This document shows, piece after piece, positions 1 through 11,377 of a stretch of DNA of 64,000 nt (position 1 is the first letter of the stretch; each line of letters begins with the position of its first letter). Below the pieces are notes generated by a model. That model saw only the letters and a list, made by a program, of their open reading frames with translations, was not told the origin of the DNA and made no database searches. The translations under genes were made by a program, and so were the position numbers. This stretch comes from Salinispira sp. Its GTDB lineage: Bacteria > Spirochaetota > Spirochaetia > DSM-27196 > Salinispiraceae. The stretch covers positions 1 to 64,000 of the forward strand of contig CBDDDG010000021.1 in assembly GCA_965226555.1 (NCBI GenBank), in the 5' to 3' direction.

Positions 1-27
1 TCAACGCCGATCAGCCGTGCTCTATCG

Positions 28-60
28 AAAAAAGGCAGGCGCGGGTTCCCCGCGCCTGCC
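28..60 (-). terminator. Rho-independent terminator of lipoprotein gene 1
   Basis: Perfect 12-bp stem GGCAGGCGCGGG/CCCGCGCCTGCC (34-45/49-60), 3-nt loop, followed by T6 on the minus strand. Confidence 0.9.
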
Positions 61-145
61 TGAGTTGAATTGCAAGGTTTCAATAGCCGCTGAGGGCTAC
101 GGGCTATGAAACTAATACCATGACGGCGGCGTTGTTACGCCGGAA
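48..145. repeat. Left copy of 98-bp inverted repeat (partner 10470-10567)
   Basis: Reverse complement matches 10470-10567 at 97/98 positions; spans last codons, stop, 3' UTR and one terminator arm. Confidence 0.95.
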
Positions 146-2194
146 TTCTTAAACGTATCTGTTTTATCTCCGGTATACTTGCCAGCGGCATTGAGCGTCC
201 AATGATCCTTCCAGTCCTCAAGATTTTGATTGAATGCGCTTGCTTCTTCGAACATAGATCCCATCTTCGTTACCGAGCTGACATCCCAGCCGGAGATATC
301 GATATTGAATGTACTTGCTGTAGTGAACATTAAGCCCATATTCGTTACCGCGCCAGTATTCCAGCCGGAAATATCGCCATTGAATGCGCTTGCTTTATAG
401 AACATTTGGCTCATATTCCTTACCGAACTGACATCCCATCTGGAGATATCGCCATTGAATACGCTTGCGTTACTGAACACTTGGAACATAGTTGTTACCT
501 TGCTGACATCCCAAGCAGAGATATCGCCATTGAATGCGTTTGCATAATAGAACATCCGGTACATAGTTGTTACCGCTGTAGTATCCCAGTCGGAGATATC
601 GCCATTGAACGTTGCTCCCCTGAACATCTGGGACATAGTCGTTACCTTACTGACATCCCAAGCAGAGATATCGCCATTGAATGCGCTACTAACAAACACA
701 TCGGTCATATCCGTTACTGCCGTGGTAATAATGTAGTTGAGGTCAGCAGTATTGCCCCAGGCTGTTATTCCCGCAGCTACTGCTGTGTCCAGTGCAGCGT
801 TATCAGCAGGACTCACGGTAACATAGAAATACTCGGCAAACAGTATGTTTCCGGATTTGCTGCCGTATACCAGATATGTTCCGGCCGTTGTACCTGTAGC
901 AACCGTAACATCTCCGGTACCCGAATCAACTGTCGGAACGGTAACCCCATCGGGCGCAGTTGCGGCGGAGACCGTAATGACTCCTGATCCACTAACCGCG
1001 AGAGTGCCCGGTTCCACCACGGTCAAAGCAACGGTTGGACTCTGAGCGGTAATAATGGTCATAGCGGCAGCCGAAAGGTTTACCGTCGCTCCCGTCCCCG
1101 AAGGAGTAGCCTGCGCCGCAGAAATTTTCGTTGTTCCCGTTGCAGGTGTAGACCAGTCGCCAGTGCCCTGTGCGTTGACAGCGCGCACCCGTACATCGTA
1201 GGAGGTACCGTTTGTCAACCCGATAATGGGGTGGCTCGCGGCAGTACCATCAGTAATAGTGGCAATGTTATCGGTATTGGTCGTTGACCATGTGCTAGCG
1301 GCGCTTGTTCTGTGCTGCACATGGTACGCGGTAATGGGGCTGCCGCCAGTATCGGTCGGCGCTGTCCATGTTGCGGTGATCTGGGCGTTTCCGCCTGTGA
1401 GCGTGGGAGCATTCATCGCGCTGGGCTTGGTAGCCGGAATTGTTATTTTCTTAATTTCCGTTGGGTTGCCATTGCCCTGACCATTGACAGCGTAGACCTG
1501 CGCCTCGTACTCGGCACCTTTTGTCAGGTTGGGGATAGTGAGGGTCAGGGTGTTGGCATCGGCGGTGGTAATGACAGGTTCCCACGCGCGTGTTCCGACT
1601 ACGCGATATTGCAGTTCATAGCGAATAATGGCGCTGTCGCCAGTATCGGTCGGCGCAGTCCATGACGCGGTAATTGTTTGCATACTCACTGCAAGCATGA
1701 ACCCATTCGGCTCCGTGGGAACGTCGGCAATAGGTGTTGCTTCCACGCTCGATTCCGACCAGTTTCCCGCACCCTGCGCGTTGACAGCGCGCACCTGCGC
1801 GACGTAGGGGGTGTCGTTTGTCAGCCCCTCAATGTCAGTGCTTATGGCTGGCGCGTCGGCTGTAGTAATGTCCTCCGACCAGTTGCTCCCGCCGTCATCG
1901 CTATGGCGAAGTTCATACGCGGTAATTTCGCTGCTGCCCTTATCTTCCGGCGGAGTCCAGTTAACCCTTAGTTGACCATTTCCCACTTCAAGGCTTGGAG
2001 CAGCCATGGTGCCCGGCAGCATTGGATCGGGTTCCGTCATTGGTTCCGGTTCCGTCATTGGATCGGGTTCAGGGCTTGGTTCCGGCATTGGACATCCGGC
2101 AAGTAATGCAACGAGAACCACGCTCATTATAATCAATACAGAGGACGTCCCCCCCCCATAACTTTCGTAGTGGATTAAAAAGATTAAACATCAT
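112..2194 (-). CDS. FN3 x3 + DUF285/BspA-like LRR surface lipoprotein; signal peptide frameshifted at a G9 tract
   Basis: ORF 112-2136 has lipobox LAGC, a PEP-rich linker, three FN3 domains (W..P..G.S.I..Y; VRAVNAQG.G.WS) and FNGDISxWDVSxVTxMxxMF repeats. AGGAG RBS and ATG at 2194 are out of frame by 1 nt across G9 (2149-2157). Confidence 0.85.
2149..2157 (-). repeat. Poly-G (G9) slipped-strand tract in signal-peptide coding region
   Basis: C9 on the plus strand; G8 restores MMFNLFNPLRKLWGGTSSVLIIMSVVLVALLAGC. Confidence 0.85.
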
Positions 2195-2325
2195 TTTAAT
2201 ACTCCTTTTTCTAACAAATATTTGTCGGACAATGTCCGCTTATGTTTCAGTGCGAATACGCGTTGAAACCTTTCTTAAAGACTACTATATAATATCAGAA
2301 ATATCAACTGCTACATGAAAATTGA

Positions 2326-3785
2326 CAGAACTTCCCCAACAATTTTTTTGACGGGATTTTGACAGAATAATGGAGGGAGATTTTGCCCTTGAGCAGTGAG
2401 TATGTGGCGGGAATACCGGGCGCATAGACCACCCCCGCCGCAGAACCGCCGGTCTGCGTTGATTGTGTGTTGGTGATATGTAAGAAATCAACTCGGTAGA
2501 CTGCCCTCGAAAACGACCGATTGTTCACTACTTAGCTCAACACGGACATCCCTCCTGTGCGAATCTGCCATTTTATTCCCTTCCATATCCACCGCCCTGT
2601 TATTTTCCATGTTCGCTTAACAGGAAGCGTTTTTGTTACGACGCTCGCCAGCACATGGTTGATACTGGTGAGAAAATTGACCCCCATGGCAATGCAGCAC
2701 AACAAACACACAGCGGCGATCTTGTTATGCGTCCGCACTCTCTTGGTGCCAGTAAGATACGACATGCGCTTAAACTCATCATTCTCTATGCTCCACCGTA
2801 GATGCGCAGCTTCCCGCGCAGCAGGCAATGACAGATGTACATCACTCGTAATTACCCAGAACGTCTCCTTCCCTTCAGTGACCCGCAGCACCAGCACCGG
2901 CACACCATGCCATTCGTCAGGCACTGCCTCAATCTGGTAACTCGTTGATCGTTGATAATCATACCCGCTCGCGGTTTGGACTGCATCACTATAGAACCCC
3001 TGATGTTCCATATAGCGGGCTGCGCGATCAAGGAGCAACCGCTCATGTTTCCGCGGAGTGCCATCCCGCTTTACCGAACGAAATTTCACCAGAATATGAC
3101 GCTTTAATTTTGCGCAGATCAGATGAAGAAAGGGCTCACACAGGTAAAGCCCATCGAAACTTAACAATTGCGGCAGGGTATCTCCTTCCCTCAAAAGCAT
3201 TTCTTCAGACCCGCGCAGTTCGTGCCCTCTGCCCTTCATCGGTCTCACAACCTGCGCATACGTTCCTGTCTTTGTCGGTCGCGCCAGCACGGTGAACCAG
3301 ACGCTCCCGAAGACACAGGTGCCATCGACAATACCAATACTCCGATGAACTCCCGTGTCCAAATAACACGATTCTTCAGTGTCACTCACTGACAACTTCA
3401 TACTGGTTCCCACCATCGTCGTCACTTCATCCGGTATGATCTGAGAAATCACCCGTTGTATGGTGCTGTCGGAACCGACCATATACCGTTTGCTGCCGAG
3501 TAACTTCCGAACATGTTTATTCCGAGCCAGATAATCGAGATCAAACAGACTCTTGCATGAAAATAATGGCATCGATATAATGAGAGCCATTATTTGTGAT
3601 AGCTGAACAACCGGTCGTTTCCGAGGGTCGGTTAAATTGGTTGTTTTCAGCATCTGTCCGAGCCTTTGAATAAAGGTTCGGGCAACACTTTTTTTCTGAG
3701 AACACATAGTCCCTCCCATAGTAGATCATAAATGTGTATGAGAATTCCTGCAATGGTCTGAAAAAAACTTGTTGGGGAAGTTCTG
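2326..3785 (-). mobile_element. Intact insertion sequence (1460 bp), IS4-like DDE type
   Basis: Terminal inverted repeats CAGAACTTCCCCAACAA (2326-2342 and 3769-3785); 9-bp target duplication GAAAATTGA (2317-2325, 3786-3794). Confidence 0.92.
2532..3707 (-). CDS. DDE transposase (IS4-like/ISNCY)
   Basis: Acidic motifs IVDGT and SFDGLY plus HLRWSIENDEFK (YREK-like); lies between the TIRs. ATG at 3707 follows GGGAGG (ORF track starts at 3719). Confidence 0.85.
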   Translation of the reverse strand: MCSQKKSVARTFIQRLGQMLKTTNLTDPRKRPVVQLSQIMALIISMPLFSCKSLFDLDYLARNKHVRKLLGSKRYMVGSDSTIQRVISQIIPDEVTTMVGTSMKLSVSDTEESCYLDTGVHRSIGIVDGTCVFGSVWFTVLARPTKTGTYAQVVRPMKGRGHELRGSEEMLLREGDTLPQLLSFDGLYLCEPFLHLICAKLKRHILVKFRSVKRDGTPRKHERLLLDRAARYMEHQGFYSDAVQTASGYDYQRSTSYQIEAVPDEWHGVPVLVLRVTEGKETFWVITSDVHLSLPAAREAAHLRWSIENDEFKRMSYLTGTKRVRTHNKIAAVCLLCCIAMGVNFLTSINHVLASVVTKTLPVKRTWKITGRWIWKGIKWQIRTGGMSVLS

Positions 3786-3938
3786 GAAAATTGAGCGAAA
3801 TATTCTTGCCGGCGGTACCGCGCTTGATGATTACCTTGGTTTAGACGCAGGACTGTCCTGGGACGTATTTGATGACGGCTTCCTGACTCTCGGCGCTGTT
3901 CACAGACCACATGCTCATGAAATGAACAAAGAATTTCG

Positions 3939-4010
<72 letters not shown>

Positions 4011-4110
4011 ATATCCGCAGAGAAAATTTTGCGTTTTTCAATGCTTTCATATATCTATACCGCATTTTTTTGCTATTGTCAAACAGAATGAATACTTTGT
4101 ATAATTGATT

Positions 4111-4587
4111 ATGTCTTCACGAGGTGAAATTTACTCTGCCCGATTCGATACAGAGAACCGAACATATTTTTTCAATATAAAAGAAAACCGTAAGGGCGAT
4201 ATGTTTCTGAATATTGTAGAAAGTAACAAGAAATCTGCCGGGTTTGAACGGTTCCAGATTATGGTATATGAAGAAGATCTCGGGCACTTTGTGGAGAAGC
4301 TTAACAGGGCAGCATCAATTATCCTGAAAAAGAGCGAAGTTTCACAGCCGGCCTCATACCGAAGTCGAAGTCCGAGAGACTCCCGAGCGCCCAGAGACTC
4401 CCGCAGCCCCCATGCCCCCAGAGACTCCCGCTCGCCCCGCGACTCCCATAAAAAGAAGTATGAGAAAGCACCTCGTTTCCGGGAAGGAAAGAATACATAT
4501 TCTGAAACTCCACGGCCGAAATTCAGGCCGAAGTTTCGGGACACGCCCGACAATCTCAATATGCCCGACACGTCCGACAAGACATAA
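4111..4587 (+). CDS. PUR-domain (DUF3276) ssDNA/RNA-binding protein with a low-complexity PRDSR tail
   Basis: EIYS...RTYFFNIKENRKGDMFLNIVES resembles bacterial PUR proteins. Confidence 0.8.
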   Translation: MSSRGEIYSARFDTENRTYFFNIKENRKGDMFLNIVESNKKSAGFERFQIMVYEEDLGHFVEKLNRAASIILKKSEVSQPASYRSRSPRDSRAPRDSRSPHAPRDSRSPRDSHKKKYEKAPRFREGKNTYSETPRPKFRPKFRDTPDNLNMPDTSDKT

Positions 4588-4628
4588 CCGCCTTGTTCCG
4601 CCTTGGCCGACAGGCCATAGCCGCTTCA

Positions 4629-5273
4629 TTAGCCGGCTTTAAAGGTCATGCGCTGAATGGCAGAGGGTCCATACCTGTGTATGGCTGCTCTATGCGCGAC
4701 TGTCGGGTAACCCTTGTGTTTATCAAAGCCGTACTGGGGCTCAATTTTATGATATTCTGTCATCCATCTATCTCTCGCGACCTTTGCAATTATTGATGCC
4801 GCGCTTATCGCAGGAATGAGCTCATCACCCTTAACGATGGCCTGAACGGAAGAATTGTGAATAATGTCTCTGAATGCCGATTTTTCCATATCTGGAACAA
4901 ATTTTCCATCTATCCGTATCATGAAGTTTTCCCTATTCACAGTTTCCCCATTCCGCGGAGTTCTGCAAAAGCTCTGCATGGCTGAGTCCAGAGCAGCGCG
5001 CATTGCGGATAGCGATGCCCAGTGAATGTTAATCCGATCAATCTCGTCATGCCAAATCCATGCCGTTCCTGTTGCCAGAGCATGCGTATAAATACTTTCG
5101 GCCAGTGTTTCGCGCTGCTCGGCGCGCAATTTCTTTGAATCCCGCAGTCCGGGGATCATGTTTTCAGAAGAGAGTATAACAGCCGATGCGACTACAGGCC
5201 CCGCCAGAGGTCCGCGGCCGACTTCATCAATTCCGCAGACAATGCTTTCTGCAGTCTTCTCCATACTATTCAT
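4629..5273 (-). CDS. rnhB: Ribonuclease HII
   Basis: GIDEVGRGPLAGPVV, DSKKL, KGD..ISAASIIAKV.RD, HKGYPT. Confidence 0.96.
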   Translation of the reverse strand: MNSMEKTAESIVCGIDEVGRGPLAGPVVASAVILSSENMIPGLRDSKKLRAEQRETLAESIYTHALATGTAWIWHDEIDRINIHWASLSAMRAALDSAMQSFCRTPRNGETVNRENFMIRIDGKFVPDMEKSAFRDIIHNSSVQAIVKGDELIPAISAASIIAKVARDRWMTEYHKIEPQYGFDKHKGYPTVAHRAAIHRYGPSAIQRMTFKAG

Positions 5274-5375
5274 ACTCCATTTTGATGATACCGACTGATC
5301 AATTGAAACTTTTGCATTTTGTAGGACTTTCTTATAGTATATCCCTCATCATTTCCATTTTGAAGTAGGTGTTCT

Positions 5376-8168
5376 GTGTTTCTGAAGCGTATTGAGCTCT
5401 TTGGGTTCAAATCTTTTGCGGATAAAACGGTAATTGAGCTGAAGGGTAATATTATTGCAATTCTTGGTCCTAACGGTTGCGGCAAAAGTAACATTGCCGA
5501 TGCGGTTAAATGGGTTATGGGGGAACAGTCCGGGAAAACTCTACGGGTGGAAAAAATGGAAGACCTTATCTTCGGAGGTTCTGAAAGCAGACGGGCGCTG
5601 AATGTAGCCGAAATTTCTCTGACCTTTGAAAATGACCTTCCCGACTTTGCCTTTTCTGAAATATCCGTAAAGCGGCGTATATTCCGTAACGGTGAAAGTG
5701 AATATTTTGTAAACAATGTTCCTGTTAAGCTGCGGAATATGAAGGAGCAACTCTTCGATATTGGTATCGGAAAAAGCGCCTATTCCATAATTGAACAGGG
5801 AAAGGTTGATCAGATTCTTTCTTCCCGGGCAGAAGATCGCCGGTATATTTTTGAAGAAGCGGCAGGTATTTCCCGACACAGAAATAAGTGGAAGGAAGCA
5901 TCGAAAAAACTGGAACAGGTTTATACGAACATCAAGCACATTGAAAGCGTATTGTCGGAAGTAAAGCGGAGCTACAACAACCTTAAAAAACAGGCAGAAA
6001 AAGCGGAAGAGTATCGAACTCTAAAAAACACGGTTTTTGAACTGGAGCGCAACAGATATCTTCTGCGTCTCAGAAAGTATCAGGAACAAAGAGACAGGAA
6101 GGAACGGGACATTCGGCATACCGGGGCAGCGCGGGAAGATGTGCAACAAGAGATTGATCATATCAACAAGTATTTGGAGACAAATCTGGATCAGGTGCGT
6201 CGCATGGAAGGCACCCTCAACGATGCTCACAGACAGTTGTATGGTATGTCAATTGAAAAGAAAAATCTTCAATCGCAGAAATCGGCGCTGGCAGAGAGAA
6301 TGCAGGACATTGAAGAACGAATCCGGCAAGATAAAGACGGCGAAGAGAACCTACAGCAGCTGAATGATGTCCTGAAAAAGGAAAACGATGAAACAGCAGC
6401 GCACATACAGGAATGCGGCGGGCGGCTTACCGGCCTCGATGATAATATCCGCGATTTTGAAGATCAGGTTAAAAGCGCCCAGAACCGCATAGATGAAAAT
6501 TCACGTGAAGAAACGCGCATTGTTAAAGAAACCCGATCTCTTGAAAAGCAGCTTGTTGAACTTCAGGAAGATCTCCAAAAATTGACAGATGATATTGTGC
6601 GGGAGCTCGATGAGCAATTAAAGACGGCAAACCCCGCTTCCCGTGAAGAGGCATCGGAGCATCTCAATACATTATTGGCGCAGCAGGCGCAGCTCATTAA
6701 ACGATATCGGCAGCGTCTTGCCGATATCCCCAATGCCTCAGAAAAGGAACTGAGCGCATTTTTTGAGGCATTCCTCAGGGAATTTGAGAGCATTTGCCGC
6801 GACATGAGCGCGGGGGTCGAAGAATACCGGAAAAATGTTCCCTCCTTCATCGAAGAGTTCCTTGCCCCGGGCGGCATTATCATGCAAAAGCGGGATATAG
6901 ACCACAGGCTGTTTGAAATCCGCAAACATGTCGACAATAATCGTCAGCGTATTGATACCTTGCAGAAAGAAAACACAGAATGGAATAATAAAATTGATGA
7001 ATGCCATACAACACTCAGAGAATTATTGATCAGCATTGAGCGGATACGGGCAGAAAAAAAATCGCTTGAGAAGGAACGCACAAAATCCCGCAACCGCATT
7101 GAGGAATTGAAGGGGCAAATTCAGAACCACCGCGAAAAAATTGCCGAAGATGAGGGACGCCTGCTGGGGCTCAGCAAACGGGGTGAGGAGCTGAACCGTG
7201 AAAGAGAACATATTCGAAAACAGGAAGAACAAATTCAGAAGGACATCGAAAAATTTCAGAAAGATATTGCAGGGGAACAAAAACAACATTCACTGAAAGA
7301 TACACAACGTAAGAAACTCCTGAAACGCCTGTCTGAGGCGCAGGAACGTCATGAAACTGAGAAAATCTCACTTGTTGAGCTCAATACCGAAATTCGAAAT
7401 CTTCAAAATCGTTTCAGGGAGCAGTATTCCCACGATCTTCACGAATTTACCGATCTGCGCATTAAAACTCCGCTCGATCAGATCAAAAAGCAGCTGCAGA
7501 CACTACAGGAAAAACTCAGATCCTTTTCCGCGGTGAATCTCATGGCTGTTGAGGAATTTAATGAGGTGAGGGAGCGGCACGACTTTCTGCAGAAACAACT
7601 CACGGATCTCACAGAAGCGCAGGGAGACTTACAGCAGGTTATCGGTCAAATTCAGGATGAATCGTTGCGGCTTTTTATGGAAAGTTACCGGCAGATACAG
7701 ATTAATTTCAATGAATTGTTCAGGAAGCTCTTCGGAGGCGGAAGAGCTGAGGTACGTATGCTTGAGCCTGAAAATCAGCTTGAATCGGGCATAGATATTT
7801 ATGCGCAGCCTCCCGGGAAAAAACTGGAGAACATTACCCTCCTCTCGGGAGGCGAGCGCTCGCTTGCTGCCATAGCCCTTGTATTTGCGGCCTACATGCT
7901 GCGGCCGGCTCCGTTTTGCTTTCTAGATGAAATTGATGCTGCCCTCGATGAGAGTAACATTGGGCATTTTGCCGGCGTGCTGAAAGATTTTTCCCGACAT
8001 TCACAGTTCATCATTGTTTCGCACAATAAAAAAACAATGATAGCGGCCGATACCCTTCTCGGGGTAACCATGCAGGAATCGGGAGTATCGAAGGTAGTTG
8101 CAGTGCGTATGCGGGGAGCGGATGCTCTGGAGAAAAATCAGGAGAAAAATCCCGATGCCCGAACATAA
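5376..8168 (+). CDS. smc: Chromosome segregation protein SMC (short spirochete type)
   Basis: FKSF, Walker A GPNGCGKSN, QG Q-loop, long coiled coil, LSGGE signature, FLDEIDAALD. Confidence 0.93.
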   Translation: MFLKRIELFGFKSFADKTVIELKGNIIAILGPNGCGKSNIADAVKWVMGEQSGKTLRVEKMEDLIFGGSESRRALNVAEISLTFENDLPDFAFSEISVKRRIFRNGESEYFVNNVPVKLRNMKEQLFDIGIGKSAYSIIEQGKVDQILSSRAEDRRYIFEEAAGISRHRNKWKEASKKLEQVYTNIKHIESVLSEVKRSYNNLKKQAEKAEEYRTLKNTVFELERNRYLLRLRKYQEQRDRKERDIRHTGAAREDVQQEIDHINKYLETNLDQVRRMEGTLNDAHRQLYGMSIEKKNLQSQKSALAERMQDIEERIRQDKDGEENLQQLNDVLKKENDETAAHIQECGGRLTGLDDNIRDFEDQVKSAQNRIDENSREETRIVKETRSLEKQLVELQEDLQKLTDDIVRELDEQLKTANPASREEASEHLNTLLAQQAQLIKRYRQRLADIPNASEKELSAFFEAFLREFESICRDMSAGVEEYRKNVPSFIEEFLAPGGIIMQKRDIDHRLFEIRKHVDNNRQRIDTLQKENTEWNNKIDECHTTLRELLISIERIRAEKKSLEKERTKSRNRIEELKGQIQNHREKIAEDEGRLLGLSKRGEELNREREHIRKQEEQIQKDIEKFQKDIAGEQKQHSLKDTQRKKLLKRLSEAQERHETEKISLVELNTEIRNLQNRFREQYSHDLHEFTDLRIKTPLDQIKKQLQTLQEKLRSFSAVNLMAVEEFNEVRERHDFLQKQLTDLTEAQGDLQQVIGQIQDESLRLFMESYRQIQINFNELFRKLFGGGRAEVRMLEPENQLESGIDIYAQPPGKKLENITLLSGGERSLAAIALVFAAYMLRPAPFCFLDEIDAALDESNIGHFAGVLKDFSRHSQFIIVSHNKKTMIAADTLLGVTMQESGVSKVVAVRMRGADALEKNQEKNPDART

Positions 8169-8577
8169 TCTTCGCGGGGCTGTGAAAAATCCCGCTGCGC
8201 CGAAGCTCAGAATAATCATAATCGCAGTAACAATTCTGACCCTCGCGGTAATAAGCAGTATCACAGCCTTCATATTGGCGCGGCCTCCTGAGATACGCGA
8301 GGAATTCGATGGTGTTGATGGTGCCGATAGTGATGGCGCCGGTAGTTTCCGCATTCCTGCCGGTAATGAATTTTCCGTGCATCCGGAGAATCTCATGCTT
8401 CCCGATATACCGTCTGAGTTATGGAGGGGGGTGTACATGCCTGTCCGGCGCCGCAAGACACAATGGGGTATGGATGAGCTGAAACAATTCTATTACGATC
8501 CGCGGGAAATTGCCGCAGAAAATCTCAGGGCGATCAATCAGAAAAAAATTGATGCCCTGCTCAATATGTATCGCTGA
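8155..8577 (+). CDS. Hypothetical single-pass membrane protein
   Basis: Overlaps the smc end; one hydrophobic segment IIIIAVTILTLAVISSITAFILA. Confidence 0.7.
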   Translation: MPEHNLRGAVKNPAAPKLRIIIIAVTILTLAVISSITAFILARPPEIREEFDGVDGADSDGAGSFRIPAGNEFSVHPENLMLPDIPSELWRGVYMPVRRRKTQWGMDELKQFYYDPREIAAENLRAINQKKIDALLNMYR

Positions 8578-8592
8578 ATTAATTATTGAGAG

Positions 8593-8650
8593 CTCATTGG
8601 AAAATTGTGCTTGCACAATTTCCAGTAACAAAATTTCATCAATGCAAAAA
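8593..8650. repeat. REP-like palindrome, long form
   Basis: CTCATTGGAAAATTGTGC-TT-GCACAATTTCCAGTAACAAAAT; related copies at 32576, 52127 and 55987. Confidence 0.75.
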
Positions 8651-8740
8651 TTGTTGTTGCATATGTTTTCTAAACCTGATATTATACCGCAACCGCAAAA
8701 ATAATGGCGGGAGCCGTCAGAATTTTTCTGAGGCAAAAAA

Positions 8741-8772
8741 TTCATAGTACCTTAGATTCATAGTACCTTAGA
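8741..8772. repeat. 16-bp tandem duplication TTCATAGTACCTTAGA x2 abutting the RBS
   Basis: Exact repeat at 8741-8756 and 8757-8772, running into AGGAGG. Confidence 0.9.
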
Positions 8773-8786
8773 AGGAGGTAATATAT

Positions 8787-10503
8787 ATGAAAATTAGACA
8801 TACAGTTGGGGGGGGGGGTAACCCTTTTCACTTTCTGCGCAATGTTTATTGTACTGATGGCGGGATGCCCAATGCCGGATGCTCCCCCTACAATGTTTGC
8901 GCCAGCCCTTGTAGCAGGAGACGGACAGCTTACCGCATCGTGGGCTGAGCTCGCCGCTATATGGAATGAGGTGAACAAAAAGGATGGCAACGCTATTACC
9001 GCGTACAACCTACGCTATGGTGAATTTGGCAGCGAGAGCTGGACGGAAATTAACACCGGTATTACCACAAGCCATACCATTACCGAGCTGACAAACGGCA
9101 TGAATTATGCCGTGCAGGTGCGCGCAGTCAACGCGGGGGGTGCGGGTTCGTGGTCAGCATCTGCCACGGCAACACCTATTGCGCCGCCAACTGCGCCCCC
9201 TGCCGCGCCGGGTACCATGGCTGCTCCAACCCTTGAAGTGGAAAATGGGCAGCTCATTGCGAAATGGACTGCGCCGGAAGATAACGGCGGCAGCCCCATT
9301 ACCGGGTATGAGCTGCAATATCGCACAGATGATGACGGAGATTGGACGATCATTATCTCCGGCAGCATTACCTGCGCGCGCAGCGAGGGGCAGACAGAAG
9401 TCTGTCAATTTGCCTTCTCATTTTACCCTTCTTACACAGGCCACACCATCGCAGGCACAACAGACGTCACCAACTACCGACTACAGGTACGCGCCGTCAA
9501 CGCGCAGGGCAATGGCGAATGGTCTGCAACAGCAATGCTGTCGTTTGCAACGCAGGTTCCTGCGGGCACGCCAGCGGTCGCAATTCTTCCGGCTGAGATT
9601 AATGCCATTATTGCCGCTGAGAACCTAAAGAACCTCAGCCTTTTTGTGACCACGGTGGGAGCAAGCAATATCACGGTCGTTGATGGAGACATTACGGCGG
9701 TCACCTCCGTAGCTACGCCCGATGGGGTTACTATTCCGACTGTCGATGCGAGTAGCGGACTTATTACGCTTACAGTTGCCGCAGATACAACGGCAGGAAC
9801 ATATCTGGTATACGGCAGTGACACCGGAACCGGAGACATAGTCTTTGCTGAGTATTTCTATATTACCCTGAGTCCAACAACTAACGCCGAACTGCAAACA
9901 GCGGTAGATGCGGGGATAAGTGACTGGGGACAAACTGGCAATTTCAACTACATTATTACCGCGGCAGTAAGGGATATGTCCAGCATTTTCTATAATAAAC
10001 CCGAATTCAATGGCGATATCTCGCTCTGGGATGTCAGTAAAGTAACAAATATGTATAGGATACTCAGTGCCGTACCCGAATTCAATGGCGATATCTCGCT
10101 CTGGGATGTCAGTAAGGTAACGAATATGAACCAGATGTTCAATTCCGCAGAAAAATTCAATGGCGATATCTCCGCTTGGGATGTTAGTTCGGTAACGAAT
10201 ATGAGCAATATGTTCAGTTTCACAGACTCATTCAATGGCAATATCTCCGCTTGGGATGTCAGTAAGGTAACGCATATGAACTATATGTTCGGTTTCGCAG
10301 ACTCATTCAATGGCGATATCTCCGCTTGGGATGTTAGTTCGGTAACGAATATGACCGATATGTTCTATTTTGCAAGTGCATTCAGTCAGAATCTTGAGGA
10401 GTGGAAGGATCATTGGACGCTTGATTCTGCTGGCAAATATACCGGAGACAAAACAAATATGTTTTTGAGTTCCGGCGTAACAACGCCGCCGTCATGGTAT
10501 TAG
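8787..10503 (+). CDS. FN3 x2 + DUF285/BspA-like LRR surface lipoprotein; signal peptide frameshifted at a G11 tract
   Basis: ORF 8806-10503 has lipobox MAGC, two FN3 domains, five FNGDISxWDVS repeats and the same C-terminus as gene 1 (SGVTTPPSWY). AGGAGG and ATG at 8787 are out of frame by 1 nt across G11. Confidence 0.85.
8808..8818 (+). repeat. Poly-G (G11) slipped-strand tract in signal-peptide coding region
   Basis: G10 restores MKIRHTVGGGVTLFTFCAMFIVLMAGC. Confidence 0.85.
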
Positions 10504-10567
10504 TTTCATAGCCCGCAGCCCTCAGCGGCTATTGAAACCTTGCAATTCAACTCAGGCAGGCGCGGGG
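10470..10567. repeat. Right copy of 98-bp inverted repeat (partner 48-145)
   Basis: 97/98 identity to the reverse complement of 48-145. Confidence 0.95.
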
Positions 10568-10669
10568 CGCCGACCGGAAGGCTCTGTTCAGTAGCAAAAA
10601 TGTTCAGAATGAATGCGGAAACATTCTCGTGATATACACCCTAAACAATTTTTGGTATTATTCAGGTAC

Positions 10670-11377
10670 ATGGAAAAATATATACATCACGTTGCCATTA
10701 ATTATCAGAATATTTGTGCCCGCATAAAACAAAAAGCGCAGCTCTGCGGAAGAGATCCGTCAACCATTACCCTGCTTGCGGTCAGTAAGACGAAGCCCCC
10801 CGAACTCATTACTCAGGCCTGGGATGCGGGAATTCGGATATTCGGGGAAAATCGAGTACAGGAAATACAGGAAAAATTTGACCCGCGTCCCCATGAGGAA
10901 ATGGAACTCCACATGATAGGGCATCTTCAGTCCAACAAGGTGAGGGCAGCCGTACAGTTGTCCGATTGGATACAAAGTGTGGACCGCGAAAAAATTCTCC
11001 AGCTCATCAGTAAAGAAGCTCAACGCTATGAACGGACAATACAGATATGCCTTGAAGTCAATACCAGCGCCGAAGAGAGTAAGTTCGGTGTGCTGAAAGA
11101 TGAAGATGTTATTCGCCTTGCTGTGTTGGCTGCAAAATTACCCTGCGTGAAGCTCAGAGGCCTCATGACGATAGGACCGCTGCTCAGTGAGGGCGAGAAA
11201 GCTCTCAGGAATGCCTTTATCCGCCTGCGGAAACTCTTTTACACAATTGGCGATGAACTTGCGCCTCCCCTATGGGATACGCTGAGTATGGGTATGAGTA
11301 ACGATTTTGAAATTGCCATTGAGGAAGGCGCTACCATGCTCCGCATCGGGAGCAGCCTCTTCGGTCTCAGGAAATAA
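10670..11377 (+). CDS. yggS: YggS-family PLP homeostasis protein
   Basis: LLAVSKT, FGENRVQE, HMIGHLQSNK, LSMGMSNDFEIAIEEGATMLRIGS. Confidence 0.95.
   Translation: MEKYIHHVAINYQNICARIKQKAQLCGRDPSTITLLAVSKTKPPELITQAWDAGIRIFGENRVQEIQEKFDPRPHEEMELHMIGHLQSNKVRAAVQLSDWIQSVDREKILQLISKEAQRYERTIQICLEVNTSAEESKFGVLKDEDVIRLAVLAAKLPCVKLRGLMTIGPLLSEGEKALRNAFIRLRKLFYTIGDELAPPLWDTLSMGMSNDFEIAIEEGATMLRIGSSLFGLRK

Follow-up and report, generated by a model that had tools for sequence, protein, structure and literature searches.

Near the start of a contig of a Salinispira spirochete, two genes predicted to encode lipoproteins point away from each other, and each is thrown out of frame by a run of G within its signal peptide. 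This locus raises the question of whether such genes are dead, misassembled or switchable. The window analysed here, 64,000 nucleotides (nt) long, is the start of contig C21 of assembly GCA_965226555.1, a genome of 2.98 Mb in 26 contigs with a completeness of 93.5% and a contamination of 6.7%. The two genes, named A and B, are divergent, with starts 6.6 kb apart. From this pair, an earlier note had proposed a gene family that combines ON/OFF slippage with a modular reshuffling of binding surfaces. The analysis of the whole genome argues, with good confidence, for slipped-strand ON/OFF phase variation acting on a dispersed, recombining family of about 110 lipoprotein genes, in which fibronectin type III (FN3) domains are joined to leucine-rich repeats (LRRs) resembling those of the TpLRR protein of Treponema pallidum.

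Gene A occupies positions 112..2194 of the reverse strand. A ribosome-binding site (2202..2206) precedes an ATG at 2194, and a class II signal peptide, whose lipobox Cys lies at 2094, is followed by a Pro-rich linker, three FN3 domains (1132..2020, approximate limits), a stalk of 150 amino acids (aa; 682..1131), then six 25-aa DUF285/PARCEL repeats with a C-terminal cap (115..681) and a stop codon at 112-114. The stalk is predicted to be beta-rich, with an Ig-like domain and a helical N-cap, the Ig-like call being a weak lead only, with an Atlas score below 0.9. A tract of nine G (G9, 2149..2157) ends 54 nt before the lipobox Cys and, since 100 nt separate the ATG from this Cys, the gene as assembled is out of frame at the tract, in the +1 class. 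Gene B (8787..10503, forward strand) is built alike, with a ribosome-binding site at 8772..8778, an ATG at 8787, a class I signal peptide, a lipobox Cys at 8866, two FN3 domains (8885..9545, approximate limits), a stalk (9546..10005), and five repeats with the cap (10006..10500), predicted to form a TpLRR-like solenoid, before the stop at 10501-10503. Its G11 tract (8808..8818) ends 47 nt before the Cys. The distance from ATG to Cys is 79 nt, so that gene B is also in the +1 class and out of frame as assembled; the start frame stops after 53 aa.

Domain searches assign both proteins to the same architecture. Genes A and B score 207 and 187 bits for DUF285 (PF03382, cut-off 25) and 92 and 73 bits for the PARCEL model TIGR02167 (cut-off 30), and both pass the fn3 cut-off. 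Their scores against the Mbov_0838 family NF045896 (135.8 and 106.2 bits, repeat region only) stay below its cut-off of 500 bits. The lipoboxes of the pair, LAGC and MAGC, stand behind a hydrophobic stretch (motif and home-made hidden Markov model), and the two signal peptides fall in different clades. When the cap repeat is counted, the genes carry 7 and 6 repeat motifs. At their 3' ends, a block of 98 nt is shared with 97/98 matches: in gene A (48..145, reverse strand) it comprises the end of the cap and the trailer common to the family, and in gene B (10470..10567, forward strand) only the first arm of the family terminator hairpin is kept. Coordinates, domain searches and clades thus bear out what the earlier note had described: outward-facing paralogues of shared architecture with unrelated signal peptides, a poly-G tract one base out of frame in each, FN3 and repeat numbers that differ (3 and 2; 6 and 5 plus cap), and a common 3' block.

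The pair belongs to a much larger set. A profile built from the repeats of the window detects 109 DUF285 open reading frames (ORFs) in the genome, and a signal-peptide profile detects 115 family lipoprotein starts; the mature frames sum to 195 kb, or 6.5% of the genome. The 82 genes that combine stalk and repeats display 33 FN3-by-repeat combinations, ranging from 0 to 11 FN3 domains and from 2 to 19 repeats. Only two pairs among 99 genes share an exact 300-mer, so duplicated haplotigs do not explain the size of the family. The larger family expected by the earlier note is therefore real, with about 110 copies and not just the two of the window. Its loci are dispersed, 100 of the 115 members have their own ribosome-binding site and start, and most have their own trailer. 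For these reasons, gene conversion from cassettes, of the vls or tprK type, was rejected as a candidate mechanism. The trailer, which follows most family genes (for instance at 26-114 of the window), is conserved and non-coding and holds two hairpins, among them the intrinsic-terminator-like hairpin and T run after gene A (26..61, reverse strand); the terminator loop often contains GC-rich palindromic inserts of variable length. A promoter scan was uninformative, with 17 sites against 15.9 expected.

The expansion appears, from these sequence comparisons, to be specific to the lineage among the genomes searched. Of the 98 other genomes searched in the order, 13 contain DUF285, none with more than 14 matches, and no full-length homologue was found among 30 relatives. 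Relatives were also sought in genome contigs with SMC and with the signal-peptide tract pattern, and no match was obtained. A metagenome scan using stalk and repeats returned 32 loci of at most 61% identity, mostly matched in the repeat part. Close homologues in other assemblies, labelled 'BspA family leucine-rich repeat surface protein [Salinispira sp.]', are available as proteins only, several of which begin inside or after the signal peptide; lacking DNA, they carry no evidence on the tracts. No description of this family was found in the literature searched, which consisted of main texts and left most subscription journals uncovered.

The frame analysis, restricted to the 100 starts with a callable ribosome-binding site and ATG (15 of 115 were dropped), provides an argument for switching. 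Of the signal peptides with a run of at least 7 G, 24/32 are out of frame, against 2/68 of those without (Fisher p=3e-14); the poly-G frameshifts noted in the pair thus recur throughout the family. The 32 run-bearing starts divide into 8 in frame, 10 at +1 and 14 at +2, as random drift among three frames would give (binomial against 2/3, p=0.35), and behind the tract the mature frame is open in all 24 out-of-frame genes, over 430-855 aa. Two signal-peptide classes carry these runs, whose ends are 47 or 54 nt from the Cys. In another eight genes the run stands just after the lipobox: five have G runs 9-21 long (two in frame, three out), and of the three with C runs 11-21 long, one is in frame, another is out and the last is a degenerate gene. 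The tracts consequently occupy four non-homologous positions, namely two signal-peptide classes, and a G run and a C run after the lipobox. On the signal-peptide tree, which rests on a short alignment, about seven tract gains or losses are required, at least four of them forced by well-supported branches.

Long runs are also strongly concentrated. Genome-wide, 31 G/C runs of 10 or more are observed against 2.4 expected (an extrapolated value), and 23 of them sit in the family 5' windows, which represent 0.58% of the genome. One of the other eight lies in a degenerate member and three are G10 runs inside FN3 domains; the remaining four belong to other lipoprotein genes, two in the 5' coding part and two upstream. 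Five genomes of the same family contain 1-7 such runs each. Among paralogues, 15 pairs differ at no more than 4 of 75 flanking nt, and in 11 of them the length of the tract differs; judged from such pairs, it changes faster than its flanks. Among the runs outside the family, a C11 just after the lipobox of a collagen-like lipoprotein (C21:318653-318663) is in frame and a C12 at the start of another lipoprotein (C22:176129-176140) is out of frame; both are likely switches. Two G10 runs beside T runs (C14:59000 and C18:93040), some 200-230 nt upstream of two related lipoprotein genes, are candidate promoter tracts. A repeated intergenic element with a G6 or G8 run was also seen in 15 copies (for example at C2:118689 and C10:485366). 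Gene callers pick other starts and thereby hide the frameshifts, so such gene sets are easily missed.

Could these frameshifts be consensus errors of a long-read assembly at long G runs, in genes that are truly in frame? The contiguity of the assembly, 26 contigs with more than 100 repeats, suggests that long reads were used, and a few breaks in family genes do lie at short G runs, as this explanation would have it. Coding frame switches are nevertheless rare at other homopolymers, being found at 8/258 A7, 3/76 A8 and 1/39 G7 runs compared with 71/4348 random sites (1.6%), so the assembly is not generally frameshifted, and each of the three G10 runs within FN3 domains is in frame. Moreover, a Logan contig of run X1 covers positions 8709-8903 with zero differences or gaps and reproduces the G11 of gene B, which largely refutes an artefact for this gene; as run X1 may be the source sample, this is a check of the assembly and not an independent population. 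Run lengths of 7-21 go far beyond a one-base error, and the very existence of the runs would be left unexplained. This explanation is accordingly given very little credence.

If the runs are real, they may be mutational hot spots on a one-way path to decay, the out-of-frame genes being young pseudogenes in a redundant and recently expanded family. About ten family loci are broken or fragmentary through other lesions, copies of an insertion sequence (IS) are abundant, and selective constraint is weak, with a ratio of nonsynonymous to synonymous substitution rates (dN/dS) of about 0.65. Against decay, not one of the 24 out-of-frame genes is truncated in its mature frame, and they are as constrained as genes in frame. 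Over FN3 and stalk, dN/dS is 0.64 for out-of-frame genes (n=21) and 0.68 for tract-free genes (n=51), and deviations from the repeat framework amount to 4.5% and 5.5% respectively. The confinement of long runs to lipoprotein 5' ends, where they have arisen at four positions, and the persistence of runs of up to 21 G or C despite MutS and MutL also speak against hot spots in dying genes, and decay is considered an unlikely explanation for the tracts.

Open mature frames fit equally well with a rheostat in which out-of-frame genes would still yield a little protein and tract length would tune its amount, through transcriptional slippage, ribosomal frameshifting or an alternative start. In gene B, the gene caller did begin the gene at a TTG directly before the tract, in frame with the body. 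This TTG, however, has no ribosome-binding site and its use would remove the charged N-region. Shifts of +1 and of +2 are both frequent (10 and 14 genes), with no preferred direction, and the tract varies in length in the DNA itself. Tuning of this kind is regarded as decidedly unlikely.

Phase variation of the simple-sequence-repeat type therefore remains the preferred reading. Two of its hallmarks are found here, an excess of mononucleotide runs at the 5' end of the coding sequence of surface genes, and a reading frame that depends on tract length in genes otherwise intact. The G/C run in or after the signal peptide of some 40 genes would gain or lose bases by replication slippage and thereby toggle each predicted surface protein on or off independently of the others. 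About two thirds of the family, which lack a coding tract, would be expressed independently of the switch. More slowly, homologous exchange of the RecA type or gene conversion via shared blocks would produce new variants, for which the out-of-frame copies would constitute an intact archive. The predicted surface proteins would then bind partners from a host, a predator or a phage. Reversible switching within a population, surface exposure and partner binding are all proposed here on the basis of sequence, and adhesin function, antigenic variation and host association, as suggested by the earlier note, are further inferences.

Several observations weigh against this scheme. Two tract lengths at one locus were never observed in the material used, which consists of Logan contigs from four runs and includes only a small part of gene A; paralogues account for the rows with an insertion or deletion at 2148 and 8808. 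Outside the family there are almost no coding runs of at least 9 G against which assembly error could be calibrated, and a frame call may here and there be wrong by one base. The genome encodes MutS and MutL, and slippage would consequently be slower. Five of the 32 signal-peptide runs comprise only 7 G. The dN/dS of about 0.65 denotes a weak constraint in all classes, and lesions of other kinds have broken about ten more loci of the family, which means that decay also occurs. Finally, the test of mosaicism based on the pairwise homoplasy index (PHI), used below, can be inflated by rate variation along the sequence.

The second part of the proposal, modular reshuffling, is supported. In 79 canonical genes, the distances between signal peptides are uncorrelated with those between stalks (rho -0.06) or caps (rho -0.05), and the two halves of the stalk share only 15 of 79 nearest neighbours, compared with at least 32 for random column halves. 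The PHI-type test on the same genes indicates that modules are themselves mosaic (p=0.001), and the best-matching paralogue changes along both gene A and gene B; the mosaicism foreseen by the earlier note is thus found. As to the mechanism, a diversity-generating retroelement would call for a reverse transcriptase and adenine-specific variation; neither a match to the reverse transcriptase domain (PF00078) nor a Y1 transposase was found in this 93.5% complete genome, the codons of variable repeat residues vary at all three positions, and RecA is present. Three tyrosine recombinases (PF00589) were detected in the genome, only on C2 and C12; serine recombinases were not searched. With the tyrosine recombinases on other contigs and neither of the former enzymes found, homologous recombination or gene conversion is left as the likely route of reshuffling.

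The inverted arrangement of the pair calls for a separate comment, because a site-specific inversion, comparable to a shufflon, could swap the 3' ends of genes A and B through their 98-nt block. In favour of this, each of the two genes is the best match of the other in cap and trailer only, their mutual ranks in four modules being 29-51, and of 3240 pairs just one has a longer near-exact 3' match than this block; the contig moreover stops 27 nt past the terminator of gene A. The pattern of matches suggests that A and B shared one recent 3' exchange. An inversion switch is on the other hand hard to reconcile with the absence of a recombinase gene among the ORFs between A and B, the three tyrosine recombinases being on other contigs. 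A crossover within the block would alter no codon, and the enclosed DNA is of a housekeeping nature (tRNA, rnhB, smc). Family members have a median spacing of 18 kb, and 11 of 38 neighbouring pairs less than 15 kb apart are divergent, so that an inverted pair is expected by chance in a dispersed family. Nor was an excess likeness of near neighbours found in 18 neighbour pairs (p=0.09 for the cap). An inversion switch is thus exceedingly improbable, and a special role for the inverted arrangement is not supported.

Slippage and exchange would act together on proteins of a recognizable design. An AlphaFold model of the mature gene B protein, built on a 50-sequence alignment (predicted local distance difference test 79.7, predicted template-modelling score 0.58), shows the two FN3 domains, then a stalk rich in beta structure, then repeats folded like those of T. 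pallidum TpLRR. Residues 335-545 of the model superimpose on TpLRR structure 6mlx with Z 13.6 and a root-mean-square deviation of 3.1 over 181 aligned residues, and on 4h09 with Z 12.1; this match rests on a predicted model, and Z is near the caution limit of the tool for repeats. A sequence search of the PDB and Foldseek listed FN3 matches only. From the lipid anchor outward, the predicted layout is an FN3 spacer, the stalk and, at the distal end, a TpLRR-like solenoid. Repeats are spaced by 25 aa in 383 of 398 cases, and 377 of 383 repeats are unique in sequence. Hypervariability affects positions 17, 18, 21, 22 and 24. The ratio of nonsynonymous to synonymous differences per site (pN/pS) is 0.17 in the framework; the value of 1.26 at the variable positions is circular, these positions having been picked by entropy. 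As far as a model can indicate, these features fit a fixed scaffold with variable binding residues, carried at the tip of a spacer of adjustable length.

Both mechanisms are already known, and the closest architecture is that of the Neisseria opa genes, dispersed full-length paralogues with a slippage repeat in the signal-peptide coding region, whose hypervariable segments are reshuffled by recombination. The opa repeats are CTCTT pentamers in about 3-11 genes for outer-membrane beta-barrels, whereas here mononucleotide runs are found in about 40 of 110 lipoproteins that also vary in repeat and domain number. Poly-G variation of surface genes in a spirochete recalls the tpr genes of T. pallidum, where poly-G tracts act on transcription from promoters, and the repeat fold matches TpLRR; TpLRR is nevertheless a single gene with LRR_5-type repeats, 10% identical to those described here. 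As in Campylobacter (PMC6321876), G runs peak at 8-10 and lie mostly inside ORFs, the ON share is near neutral drift and the number of tracts per genome is similar, but the Campylobacter tracts are spread across many unrelated genes while nearly all long tracts belong here to one paralogous family. PARCEL lipoproteins have been described in Mycoplasma agalactiae and Mycoplasma capricolum (Roske et al. 2010, PMC2996958), and for MAG1330 and MAG3260 of M. agalactiae, which have an N-terminal poly-G, frameshift phase variation was proposed; these are two genes, compared with about 40 here. The present repeats moreover stand on a variable FN3 array and stalk, the word 'fibronectin' being absent from the main text of PMC2996958, and the present system differs from Mycoplasma PARCEL lipoproteins in belonging to a spirochete and in having tracts at four separate positions. 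The repertoire is about 4 times the average of 27 DUF285 proteins per Mycoplasma feriruminatoris strain (PMC10634449). What is new is the scale, together with the gathering of tracts on a single FN3-PARCEL family and their placement at four separate positions.

Between genes A and B lie an IS, a tRNA, a DUF3276 gene, rnhB, smc and a small membrane protein gene. The IS (2319..3792, reverse strand; 1474 bp, 31-nt imperfect inverted repeats, transposase at 2532-3725) ends 125 nt upstream of gene A. It has no Pfam match and only a weak match to IS1380 (E 0.003), and eight other near-complete copies, 98-99% identical, are found elsewhere in the genome. It is probably a bystander, and its insertion may have altered the promoter of gene A. 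The tRNA beside it (3939-4010) is the sole Rfam match. The DUF3276 protein has an Arg-Asp-Ser-rich tail encoded by degenerate 9/18-nt repeats (4372-4447). A short hairpin element upstream of gene B (8591-8645) occurs at about 418 loci genome-wide, and lies upstream of 27 of the 115 family genes, compared with 106 among 1243 other long ORFs, in windows defined slightly differently. Gene B is flanked by smc and yggS (5379-11377), which two complete genomes of the same family place on opposite strands, about 170 kb apart; gene B thus stands at a synteny break. The stretch was found in five runs, with no RNA run among those listed; some are labelled 'organism A' and the others are cave metagenomes, where a relative about 98% identical likewise has the family, at high depth. 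Symbionts of sponges have been assigned to Salinispira (PMC12478362), and host association is by analogy plausible for this spirochete.

A bolder possibility, tentative and on balance doubtful, is that this family works as a bacterial counterpart of variable lymphocyte receptors, with a repertoire of LRR binders that diversifies clonally. If so, about 110 complete genes would trade FN3 spacers and 25-aa repeats through continuing recombination, specificity would be set by the five hypervariable positions of each repeat, and repeatedly evolved G/C switches would silence about a quarter of the family as an intact archive. An uncultured spirochete, possibly living with animals, would then show a different surface cell by cell, with neither an expression site nor cassettes.

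Most known cases of phase variation come from cultured pathogens. The present spirochete, uncultured and related to Salinispira, devotes 6.5% of a 3-Mb genome to one surface family that bears almost all its long G/C runs. One large family with long runs at four separately evolved positions points to strong and fluctuating selection on the surface, from a host, a predator or a phage. The 383 repeats, with their fixed framework and five variable positions, offer a natural series for finding the ligands of DUF285/PARCEL.

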